Both the position numbers and the translations under genes were made by a program. Of a stretch of 34,309 bases of DNA, positions 31,000 to 31,944 are shown piece by piece. The DNA lies in NCBI GenBank assembly GCA_038064495.1, contig JBBTSZ010000002.1:413524-447832 (forward strand). The letters are read 5' to 3'. The first letter of the stretch is position 1. Each line of letters begins with the position of its first letter. The notes under the pieces are model-generated. The model was not told where the DNA came from. It worked only from the letters and a program-made list of their open reading frames with translations, and ran no database searches. This stretch comes from Patescibacteria group bacterium. GTDB lineage: Bacteria > Patescibacteriota > Minisyncoccia > Phycocordibacterales > Phycocordibacteraceae.

Positions 31000-31045
31000 C
31001 ATTCCGCGGCTCGCCTCGCTGAGGCTTGGCGAAGCGGGTAGCTCA
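31000..31045 (+). repeat. Duplicate of tRNA-Asn 5' end interrupted by a 29-bp palindrome
   Basis: CATTCCGCGG[CTCGCCTCGCTGAGGCTTGGCGAAGCGGG]TAGCTCA versus CATTCCGCGGTAGCTCA at 31283-31299. Confidence 0.75.
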
Positions 31046-31049
31046 TATA

Positions 31050-31295
31050 ATGAAGCTGTATATTCTTAAAAGCGTTTCGTTTCCAAAAACGTATGTTGGT
31101 ATTACAGCAAATTTAGAGAGGAGGTTGAGAGAACATAACTCGGGACAAAGCACCTATAGCAAACGCTATAAACCATGGGAGTTGATTCATACAGAAGAAT
31201 TCGACACTATGTTTTTGGCTCGAATCCGTGAGAAGTTCTTCAAGACTGGTGCTGGTAGACGTGAAATTGCAAAGTTATTAGACATTCCGCGGTAG
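31050..31295 (+). CDS. Stand-alone GIY-YIG nuclease (81 aa)
   Basis: LYIL..TYVGIT.NLERRLREHN.G..Y.PWEL..E..AR.RE..FK; last codons and stop lie inside the tRNA 5' end. Confidence 0.92.
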   Translation: MKLYILKSVSFPKTYVGITANLERRLREHNSGQSTYSKRYKPWELIHTEEFDTMFLARIREKFFKTGAGRREIAKLLDIPR

Positions 31296-31319
31296 CTCAG
31301 TGGTAGAGCAGGTCGCTGT

Positions 31320-31873
31320 GGAGAAGGTTCCTGGTATACTCAAGTGTGTATGCCAGAGACAAGAACCTATGCCGACCGCCGAGAGTACTTGAAAGAGGCT
31401 GTTAAGAAGCGGCGAAAATTCCTTCGAGAAAAGGCTTGCGAGTACGGAGGCGGAAAGTGCATGATTTGTGGCTATAAGCGTTGTTCAGCTGCACTTGATT
31501 TTCACCACATCGATTCCAAAGCAAAAGAGTTTGGTTTGTCTGCAAATGGACTGACTCGCTCTTGGGAAAAGATGAAGGCTGAATTGGATAAGTGCGTCTT
31601 GATATGCGCCAACTGTCACAGAGAAGTACATGCAGGCATTGCGCAGCTTCCAACGGAAACGTTGGTTGAAAAACGAGGTGAATTCGGGGAAACCCTCACG
31701 CGAAAGCGCGGGCAATCCCGAGCCAAGCCTGTGCGAAAGCACAGGAAGGTGTAGAGACTATCCCGTAAGGGAGTACTTGGTCGCAAGATCTGGGAAGCGC
31801 CTCGCACCCACACTCATCAAGCGATGAACGGGTGATGATATAGTCCATACTTTCGGTAACGAAAGACCATATG
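31320..31873 (+). ncRNA. Group I self-splicing intron (554 nt) at tRNA position 35/36
   Basis: Exon ends in U, intron ends in G; IGS CGCAGC 31642-31647; P3 CGAGGTG/CGCCTCG; P4 TTCGGG/CCCGAG; P7 GACTAT/ATAGTC; P8 CACCC/GGGTG; P9 CTTTCG-GTAA-CGAAAG. Confidence 0.92.
31350..31754 (+). CDS. Intron-encoded HNH homing endonuclease (134 aa)
   Basis: CMICGY..LDFHH..CVLICANCHREVH zinc-finger HNH signature; starts in the P1 loop and reads into the ribozyme core. Confidence 0.9.
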   Translation: MPETRTYADRREYLKEAVKKRRKFLREKACEYGGGKCMICGYKRCSAALDFHHIDSKAKEFGLSANGLTRSWEKMKAELDKCVLICANCHREVHAGIAQLPTETLVEKRGEFGETLTRKRGQSRAKPVRKHRKV

Positions 31874-31920
31874 TAACGACTTGGTCGTAGGTTCGAATCC
31901 TACCCGCGGAGCTTGTTAGG

Positions 31921-31944
31921 AAAATCGCCCTTTGGGGCGATTTT
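31921..31944 (+). terminator. Hairpin/terminator after tRNA-Asn
   Basis: AAAATCGCCC-TTTG-GGGCGATTTT. Confidence 0.7.

Follow-up and report, generated by a model that had tools for sequence, protein, structure and literature searches.

How does a bacterium read the codons AAU and AAC if standard finders of transfer RNA (tRNA) genes report no tRNA for asparagine in its genome? The question is posed by a 34,309-nucleotide stretch of DNA (the window; positions 413524–447832 of contig C2, JBBTSZ010000002.1) from a Patescibacteria group bacterium (genome G000, assembly GCA_038064495.1), a 703,483-bp metagenome-type assembly in 11 contigs that is rated 98.29% complete. In default mode ARAGORN found no tRNA-Asn in the window or in the whole genome (37 tRNAs, none Asn), and the Rfam tRNA model RF00005 likewise gave 37 genomic matches over its cut-off, none of them Asn. 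The window does hold a tRNA-Asn(GUU) gene, interrupted within its anticodon by a 554-nt insert that contains an open reading frame (ORF) for an HNH endonuclease. By Rfam model and covariation the insert is a group I intron, and we hold it close to certain that such an intron interrupts the only detectable tRNA-Asn gene. Positions below are those of the window unless a contig is named, and G and L numbers are our handles for genomes and loci.

The split gene and its splice junction

The insert lies between anticodon nucleotides 35 and 36 and separates a 34-nt exon ending in CTGT from a 38-nt exon that begins with TAA and does not encode CCA. With introns allowed, ARAGORN recovered the gene unaided as i(35,554), that is, with a 554-nt intron from gene position 35, and the joined exon slices were called tRNA-Asn(gtt). 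The intron-less tRNA-Asn genes of two genomes of the same genus (G038 and G124) are identical to exon 1 plus exon 2 (100%, 73/73 nt), their first 34 nt being those of exon 1. These natural alleles confirm the predicted junction and show that the architecture is not due to chance. A reading of the window from its letters alone (the sequence-only reading) had rebuilt a tRNA-Asn cloverleaf from two exons around a 554-nt insert at 35/36; its coordinates proved exact, and the anticodon across the joint reads gtt and no other. It had also expected tRNA scanners to miss the gene, as they do here.

The exact joint (31319 to 31874) was also present in the DNA contigs of 4/4 groundwater metagenome runs, one of which contained ORF-less intron forms as well; these joints belong to genes of relatives (85% likeness) and hence support the junction and nothing further. 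Moving the cut to the right by one base would yield a GTG (His) anticodon. That placement was rejected: it would leave G at the end of the exon and T at the end of the intron, against the most constant rules of group I splicing (a 5′ exon ending in U and an intron ending in G), and a tRNA-His is already present in the genome.

On the split gene RF00005 found the 5′ half only (E 0.68), and of its three sub-threshold matches in the genome two correspond to 5′ halves, one from each of the two split genes (the second is described below). tRNAscan-SE 2.0 was not designed for group I introns (PMC8450103). A search for another tRNA-Asn with ARAGORN in default and intron mode and with Rfam found none in the 98.29%-complete genome, so that the split gene is the only one detected. 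Unless a copy lies in unassembled DNA, all AAU and AAC codons therefore depend on this gene and hence on its splicing, including the Asn codon of the HNH motif itself.

Fold of the insert

In a whole-genome search the insert was the only match to the group I intron model RF00028 (31551–31866, model positions 1–253), scoring 70.1 bits against a gathering score of 50 (E 5.3e-16), in line with the class proposed by the sequence-only reading. The features listed there (the U·G splice-site pair, P3, P4, P6, P7, P8 and P9, two hairpins after P7 and a terminal G) are all present in the sequence. The helices were mapped by hand on the window intron and tested on an alignment (A1) of 38 related introns, the window copy included (Table 1). 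In the mapped structure 92.7% of cells were paired, versus 33–46% when the 3′ partners were slid by 1–3 columns; compensatory changes on both sides occurred in 41/66 pairs, and the covariation score of 0.395, versus 0.130 for shuffled alignments, was matched in 0/500 shuffles. Compensatory changes fall mostly in P2, P4, P6a, P7.2, P8 and P9, and P4 exists in two fully complementary versions, found in 24 and 14 sequences. P3, P4, P5 and P6 are 98.5–100% paired, and the variable P5a and P6a reach 82.9% and 86.6% in MAFFT columns. Both-side changes also affect the two extra hairpins (2/4 pairs in P7.1, 6/6 in P7.2).

The 5-bp P1 contains the splice-site wobble U31319·G31643, and the guide-sequence bases G-C-A-G-C are invariant in 38/38 aligned introns. 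Because P1, its U·G included, and P7 do not vary, covariation neither supports nor contradicts these two helices. A terminal G stands directly before TAA in all introns of the three sets described below, 44 from the family, 24 from the phylum and 66 from species representatives, the join test for the last set having itself required that G. As for subgroup, the location in the anticodon loop and a P1 built from anticodon-loop bases are Azoarcus-type (IC3) traits; the presence of P7.1 and P7.2, the length of 554 nt and the ORF are not, since introns of that type have P3′ immediately after P7, measure about 200–250 nt and are ORF-less. The ORF-less tRNA-Asn introns of relatives (213–257 nt) keep both extra hairpins.

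An additional element of about 100 nt, beginning with a G/C-rich hairpin, is inserted in some tRNA-Asn introns of the alignment, either in the P6 loop (G122 and G112; L020 and L033) or in the P7.2 loop (G176 and G122; L009 and L020). It gave no Rfam family at E≤0.1 and may be a small mobile insertion. Just 3′ of the tRNA gene, a terminator scan whose rule needs at least five T found none; the hairpin listed there in Table 1 was read from the sequence.

Table 1. Features of the interrupted tRNA-Asn gene and its intron, in window coordinates
Feature	Position	Strand	Remarks
tRNA-Asn(GUU) exon 1	31286–31319	+	acceptor 5′ strand, D arm, anticodon stem 5′ strand, C32, U33, G34, U35
P1 5′ strand, last five exon bases (tRNA positions 31–35)	31315–31319	+	read from sequence
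Group I intron, 554 nt	31320–31873	+	terminal G (omega G) at 31873; RF00028, ARAGORN intron mode, covariation (38 relatives)
Extended −10-like motif TGnTAnnnT	31332–31340	+	putative internal promoter; 9 nt before HNH start codon
HNH endonuclease ORF, 134 aa plus stop	31350–31754	+	in P1 loop; stop codon in J6/7
Internal guide sequence (P1 3′ strand)	31643–31647	+	pairs with 31315–31319; inside HNH reading frame
P2 hairpin, 31650–31655 with 31660–31665	31650–31665	+	GAAA loop; 6/6 pairs compensatory; 98.7% paired
P3, 31674–31680 with 31798–31804	31674–31804	+	2/7 pairs covary; encloses P4–P6a
P4	31684–31689 with 31716–31721	+	3/6 pairs covary
P5; P5a	31693–31695 with 31710–31712; 31699–31701 with 31706–31708	+	
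P6; P6a	31722–31724 with 31748–31750; 31728–31734 with 31739–31745	+	P6a: 6/6 pairs covary
P7 pseudoknot, 31756–31760 with 31841–31845	31756–31845	+	expected guanosine-binding helix; paired in 38/38, invariant
Extra hairpins P7.1 (31761–31764 with 31769–31772) and P7.2 (31776–31782 with 31787–31793)	31761–31793	+	between P7 and P3′
P8, 31805–31809 with 31830–31834; inner stem P8a, 31814–31818 with 31823–31827	31805–31834	+	P8: 2/5 pairs covary, 100% paired
P9 hairpin	31850–31865	+	GUAA loop; 5/6 pairs covary; then 8 nt to terminal G31873
tRNA-Asn exon 2	31874–31911	+	U36, A37, A38, anticodon stem 3′ strand, variable loop, T arm, acceptor 3′ strand, discriminator G
Weak terminator-like 8-bp hairpin	31923–31942	+	followed by only two T; just 3′ of tRNA; read from sequence

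The HNH endonuclease gene

The translated ORF matched the Pfam HNH family PF01844 with 22.6 bits (cut-off 21.4; residues 37–95) and PHROG 2255, 'HNH endonuclease', with E 1.8e-31 (residues 8–111), which bears out the HNH ORF of the sequence-only reading. A detail to add is that the frame extends beyond the loop, with the guide sequence, P2, P3, P4–P5 and P6 of the ribozyme coding for its 3′ part. Among solved structures the closest is 6me0_C (E 5.5e-5), an endonuclease domain from a group II intron maturase. Residues recognizable in the translation are C37-x2-C40, H52-H53, C86-A-N88-C89-H90 and H94, with catalytic roles assigned by analogy. Of 13 aligned intron ORFs, 12 retain both Cys pairs together with the second-motif Asn, and 12 retain the last His; in one deviant ORF C40 is replaced by K, in another the Asn is replaced by T and the last His by E. 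Homologues number at least 1061 at E≤1e-3 and are typically 104–136 aa long. The gene is single-copy in this genome, which contains no intron-less target.

All ORF-bearing relatives have the HNH gene in the same position, within the P1 loop and immediately 5′ of the guide sequence. Every ORF-bearing intron has a reading frame that crosses this sequence, so that the ribozyme dictates the conserved C-terminal residues I-T-Q-L-P. P2–P6 are read through as well in the window copy and in three relatives, where the stop codon falls in the invariant J6/7. The ORF (104–145 aa) is intact in each of the family set's 13 long introns. Over the 90 codons before the guide sequence, the median proportion of nonsynonymous differences (pN) is 0.19 versus 0.80 for synonymous ones (pS), with pN below pS in 78/78 pairs, which indicates that the HNH domain is under purifying selection.

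In 10/13 ORF-bearing introns a TGnTAnnnT motif stands upstream of the ATG, its end 9 nt away, and the other three have close variants in the same place; it may act as an internal promoter for a leaderless HNH messenger RNA (mRNA), whose start in the window copy would lie 0–2 nt ahead of the ATG at 31350. A scan for sigma-70 promoters, which requires a −35 hexamer, found none inside the intron. On the upstream side, a gene for an 89-aa GIY-YIG protein (31026–31295, + strand; Pfam E 1.6e-14) overlaps the first 10 nt of the tRNA-Asn gene with its 3′ end. NCBIfam gave no match for this protein, and a GIY-YIG gene adjoining tRNA-Asn was seen in no related locus examined.

Alleles among close relatives

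The family was sampled through 200 other genomes, with the 626-nt stretch and the intron-less allele as queries. Uninterrupted tRNA-Asn genes occur in at least 118/200 among the matches listed, and all 19 of the uninterrupted alleles fetched (79–91% identity) were called tRNA-Asn(gtt) by ARAGORN. An intron at the identical site is present in 44/200; the 44 are made up of the aligned rows other than that of the window (38 rows with it) and 7 more. Of these introns 29 are ORF-less, mostly 213–257 nt with a few of 314–334 nt that contain extra inserts, and 15 carry the HNH gene (532–723 nt). About 39/200 genomes fall outside the tally, with no match, fragments at contig ends, or a match to P9 plus exon 2 only (G154, G179, G059, G067, G015, G049), and one genome with 4% contamination (G197) has interrupted and uninterrupted copies both. 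Presence and absence at one identical site among close relatives is as expected for a homing element. The mobility that the sequence-only reading thought probable thus finds indirect support in the three allele types of one family and in the purifying selection on the HNH gene.

An HNH homologue often stands free beside a tRNA-Asn gene with an ORF-less intron: downstream and on the same strand in G156 (L022) and G197 (L027), upstream and on the opposite strand in four other family loci (L026, L028, L030, L032), with further cases at L187, L205, L210, L212, L215 and L217. Free-standing endonucleases can serve a neighbouring intron, and tRNA-Asn loci with an adjacent HNH gene recall such pairs.

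Distribution across phyla

In a 400-genome sample of the phylum, a BLAST search with the core and exon 2 matched 45 genomes. Of 29 loci fetched, 24, from at least 20 families, have tRNA-Asn split at the same site; the other five are three intron-less genes and two tRNA-Phe genes with a different intron. A search for HNH relatives among species representatives (one genome per species) gave 111, of which 80 were kept, and 66/80 of these HNH-homologue loci have a tRNA-Asn(gtt) split at the same site. With host groups taken from record titles, 23 of the 66 are of the candidate phyla radiation (CPR; Patescibacteria) type, 9 are labelled just 'bacterium' and 34 bear other labels. These others comprise Acidobacteriota, Nitrospirota, Ignavibacteriota/Bacteroidota, Elusimicrobiota, Aminicenantes, Acetothermia, WOR-3, Rokubacteria, Chloroflexota and Aerophobetes, as well as three metagenome-assembled genomes (MAGs) labelled Gammaproteobacteria and one labelled Deltaproteobacteria. 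All of the non-CPR-labelled loci checked (20/20) matched RF00028 above its cut-off, with 58–100 bits. Among the hosts are a Nitrospirales chromosome of 4.6 Mb and a WOR-3 chromosome of 2.85 Mb, besides contigs that measure 2.9, 1.35 and 1.23 Mb, and mis-binning therefore cannot account for all of the non-CPR labels. Seemingly identical introns in tRNA-Tyr(GUA) or tRNA-Thr(UGU), as called by ARAGORN, were rejected, since re-joining shows them to be mis-parsed tRNA-Asn genes.

An unrooted HNH tree was built by a quick method from 56 rows and 94 columns, five rows having been dropped for want of a CxxCH motif (L143, L192, L196, L201, L211). Of the 27 non-CPR-labelled rows, 24 form one clade together with 2 unlabelled rows (98% support in the Shimodaira–Hasegawa-like approximate likelihood ratio test, SH-aLRT); the Acidobacteriota (7 rows) group together, as do the Ignavibacteriota/Bacteroidota (4 rows). 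The CPR/non-CPR label changes 4 times on the tree, versus a shuffled mean near 19 (for the non-CPR label). The element thus appears to persist within lineages and occasionally to cross between phyla.

Three rows labelled Gammaproteobacteria (L154, L171, L193) sit among CPR rows, and L171 pairs with a 'Patescibacteria group' record with 96% support; these MAG labels may be wrong, or transfer may have occurred. Distant, longer HNH homologues are found in L216, L218, L220, L221 and L222 (labelled Chloroflexi/Chloroflexota or Gemmatimonadaceae), about 450 nt downstream of tRNAs (Arg cct/tct, or Thr) for which ARAGORN predicts introns of about 206 nt.

Other interrupted tRNA genes

The second split tRNA of the genome is a tRNA-Thr(GGU) gene that lies outside the window (C2 137682–137957) and was found by ARAGORN in intron mode, with a 203-nt insert at 36/37. 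The insert matched neither RF00028 nor any other Rfam family at E≤1, and it shows a group I-type architecture with a U·G-containing P1, P2–P9, a P3/P7 pseudoknot and a terminal G. On 26 relatives this structure was 96.2% paired versus 32–49% in slid controls, with compensatory changes in 27/47 pairs. Intron-less tRNA-Thr alleles exist in the family, their exons abutting exactly at the 36/37 junction, and that of G005 is 100% identical. The insert looks like a compact group I lineage missed by the Rfam model.

Ten relatives have tRNA(CAU) genes with Azoarcus-sized introns of about 200 nt, apparently at 33/34, the junction being placed by eye (G165, G002, G038, G078, G114, G159, G122, G141, G183, G095; loci L053–L062). 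These score 48–59 bits with RF00028, 7/10 of them above the 50-bit gathering score; they are without P7.1 and P7.2, and their P4–P6 part is 76–81% identical to that of the window intron. Two tRNA-Phe(GAA) genes, L074 (G589) and L083 (G533), have introns of about 208–225 nt, again apparently at 33/34. With the Asn, Thr, CAU and Phe cases, at least four tRNA isotypes in the phylum carry group I-type introns.

Three further points concern the tRNA set of the genome. An apparent loss of tRNA-Lys(UUU) was rejected as a second case, that gene being split across the ends of contigs C8 and C2. ARAGORN also reported a 98-nt 'tRNA-Stop(tta)' with a long extra arm outside the window (C2 514756–514853), which is not among the Rfam tRNA matches at E≤1 and may be either spurious or a tRNA-like element. 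For Ile, a tRNA with the anticodon UAU lies at C2 107595–107671, also outside the window, and the genome has only two CAU tRNAs, which together suggest that AUA is read by the UAU tRNA and not by a lysidine-modified CAU tRNA.

Proposed mechanism and alternative explanations

The proposed course of events would begin with transcription of the precursor tRNA. Its last exon bases, G31, C32, U33, G34 and U35, would pair with the guide sequence to form P1, with U·G at the splice site, and the P3–P9 core would fold, including the two extra hairpins between P7 and P3′. An external guanosine would attack the 5′ splice site, and the freed exon would then attack behind the terminal G31873 to give a ligated tRNA-Asn body of the normal 72 nt. 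The HNH gene would probably have a promoter of its own, of the extended −10 type, that gives a leaderless mRNA, and the enzyme would cut intron-less tRNA-Asn genes, into which the intron would be copied by repair (homing). We infer self-splicing, promoter use, cleavage and homing of the tRNA-Asn intron from sequence comparisons, and put the whole package, self-splicing and HNH-driven homing included, at a probability of about 0.87.

Several observations weigh against this account. The two helices that matter most for catalysis, P1 and P7, are those untouched by covariation, and inspection of the window sequence by eye found no convincing P10 with the 3′ exon. P1 closes over a 323-nt loop with a translated ORF, which could slow folding or require help. 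The Pfam score of the HNH protein barely exceeds the cut-off, and NCBIfam gave no match for it. Among 61 HNH rows, 5 are without an intact CxxCH in a single uninterrupted reading (four are apparently broken by a stop or frame shift, and one has S for the first C), and the endonuclease gene may be decaying in some of these. The clustering of HNH sequences by host group is as compatible with long vertical persistence and rare transfer as it is with active homing. Finally, the genome is in 11 contigs, and a second tRNA-Asn may sit on unassembled DNA.

The same clustering, with its single well-supported non-CPR clade, lends itself to a view in which the intron is spliced but this copy is no longer mobile, being inherited mostly vertically and sometimes lost, with the HNH protein kept for maturase-like help in folding or for general DNA nicking. 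That the gene is single-copy in a genome without an intron-less target fits this view, as does the group II maturase domain as closest solved relative; purifying selection shows that a function is kept, not which one. On the other hand, one genus holds the no-intron, ORF-less and ORF-bearing states at the identical site, with exons up to 100% identical, which makes repeated precise loss alone a strained account. Moreover, some genomes have an ORF-less intron with the HNH gene outside it, so that the endonuclease gene moves independently of the ribozyme; the ORF-less introns also keep all core helices, so that the ribozyme seemingly needs no protein in cis. We consider immobility of the window copy unlikely, though deserving of serious weight. 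A related proposal, which we judge quite unlikely, is that splicing in the cell needs a host or intron-encoded protein cofactor, a group I fold being necessary but not sufficient. Many group I introns need protein helpers in vivo, and the very long P1 loop and a P10 that is weak or absent by eye point the same way; yet the core is complete and compact, like those of small bacterial tRNA introns, and ORF-less relatives of 213–257 nt persist in the only tRNA-Asn match of most genomes that have them. In addition, the 205-nt Azoarcus tRNA-Ile intron self-splices efficiently (PMC13168695).

Two further explanations carry far less weight. It is highly improbable that the tRNA-Asn is dead and the insertion decaying, with Asn codons read otherwise. 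Organisms with such small genomes are thought to be host-dependent, but no other tRNA-Asn was found, the exons are identical to functional-looking intron-less alleles of relatives, compensatory changes have kept the core helices, the ORF is intact and under selection, and dozens of genomes across many lineages retain this arrangement. To an assembly artefact, a chimeric contig of tRNA halves and unrelated intron DNA, we give practically no credence: the assembly is indeed of metagenome type and in 11 contigs, but the same split was met again in 44 genomes of the family, in 24 loci of the phylum sample and in 66 species-representative records, complete chromosomes of 2.85 and 4.6 Mb included, and contigs from an independent run cover the window stretch with 0 differences in the overlapping pieces. 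A self-splicing intron with HNH-driven homing is thus the reading that we prefer.

Implications

Default finders report no tRNA-Asn here and, by the same logic, in dozens of other genomes, and a missing tRNA-Asn call can be misread as incompleteness, as loss of the tRNA or as a hint of codon reassignment. The remedy is to run ARAGORN with introns allowed, which recovers the gene. In a genome of about 0.7 Mb, essential decoding appears to hang on ribozyme catalysis. A single family shows the life cycle expected of a homing intron, with the empty site, the ORF-less and ORF-bearing introns and the free-standing endonuclease gene beside the intron, and the element has reached many phyla. The intron family offers many natural variants of a compact ribozyme, along with small (about 100-aa) HNH enzymes that presumably recognize a conserved tRNA-Asn sequence of about 20–30 bp.

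A wider interpretation is that the window copy belongs to one very widespread selfish element that targets the anticodon of tRNA-Asn(GUU) and is not specific to Patescibacteria. Such an element would combine a ribozyme with two post-P7 hairpins, an HNH gene in the P1 loop, a promoter of its own and a C-terminus dictated by the guide sequence; it would occupy the same site in many phyla, often in what is apparently the only tRNA-Asn gene, and its sister families would be the introns of tRNA-Thr(GGU) at 36/37, invisible to Rfam, and those of tRNA(CAU) and tRNA-Phe at 33/34. Unless covered by a 2025 preprint discussed below, this would be an undescribed pan-bacterial family of tRNA introns. We offer this joint interpretation tentatively, as one rather more apt to fail in some part than to hold in all.

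Comparison with known systems

Group I introns in tRNAs of these organisms have been reported before. Lui et al. (2021) remarked in one sentence, giving neither isotype nor position, that some tRNAs of circularized CPR genomes had group I introns (PMC8172020), and their case agrees with the window copy in the kind of organism, the kind of element and the missed tRNAs. A 2025 preprint on tRNA group I introns of Patescibacteria (10.1101/2025.07.03.662931), cited in PMC12641178, announces a novel insertion site in its title, as given in that citation, and this may be the tRNA-Asn site described here. Full-text literature searches, judged by titles and the starts of abstracts, returned no bacterial tRNA-Asn group I intron and, for tRNA group I introns in Patescibacteria or CPR, only the remark in PMC8172020 and the citation of the preprint. 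The caution of the sequence-only reading that the case may not be entirely new is therefore well placed, as the preprint exists.

The sequence-only reading named Leu, fMet, Ile and Arg tRNAs as hosts of the classic bacterial introns, placed at other positions and mostly ORF-less. A precedent with an endonuclease is the tRNA-fMet intron of Synechocystis PCC 6803, likewise a chromosomal group I intron in the anticodon region with an endonuclease aimed at the intron-less anticodon region (PMC1995217). In that 2007 compilation its enzyme, I-Ssp6803I of the PD-(D/E)XK type, is the only tRNA-intron endonuclease, and HNH genes are listed only in phage introns (PMC1995217). In contrast to Synechocystis, the window intron pairs an HNH enzyme with tRNA-Asn, its ORF takes up the P1 loop and extends over the guide sequence and core, and it has two extra hairpins.

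The tRNA-Ile(CAU) intron of Azoarcus sp. BH72, 205 nt and ORF-less, resembles the window intron as a compact ribozyme in a tRNA anticodon loop (PMC13168695). It differs in having no ORF, in its tRNA and in its insertion position. It belongs to subgroup IC3 and is not known to have hairpins between P7 and P3′, and its core is presumably close in sequence to that of the window intron. Extra P7.1/P7.2 hairpins are a mark of phage-type (IA) introns. The phage introns with I-TwoI (Staphylococcus phage Twort) and I-BasI (Bacillus phage Bastille) also have an HNH gene inside a group I intron (PMC1995217), and the window protein matches the phage HNH family PHROG 2255. Unlike them, which reside in protein-coding genes of phages, the window intron is chromosomal and lies in a tRNA gene.

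Within the CPR, Tsurumaki et al. (2024) described group I introns with LAGLIDADG or GIY-YIG genes in 16S and 23S ribosomal RNA (rRNA) genes, in a main text that contains neither 'tRNA' nor 'HNH' (PMC11270868). These share with the window copy the group of organisms, the presence of homing endonuclease genes and the residence in essential RNA genes, and differ in their rRNA hosts and endonuclease families. The window copy is thus very probably a further member of a kind already reported; what may be new are the host tRNA and site, the pair of extra hairpins, an HNH gene placed in the P1 loop and overlapping both guide sequence and core, and, most of all, the occurrence beyond Patescibacteria.

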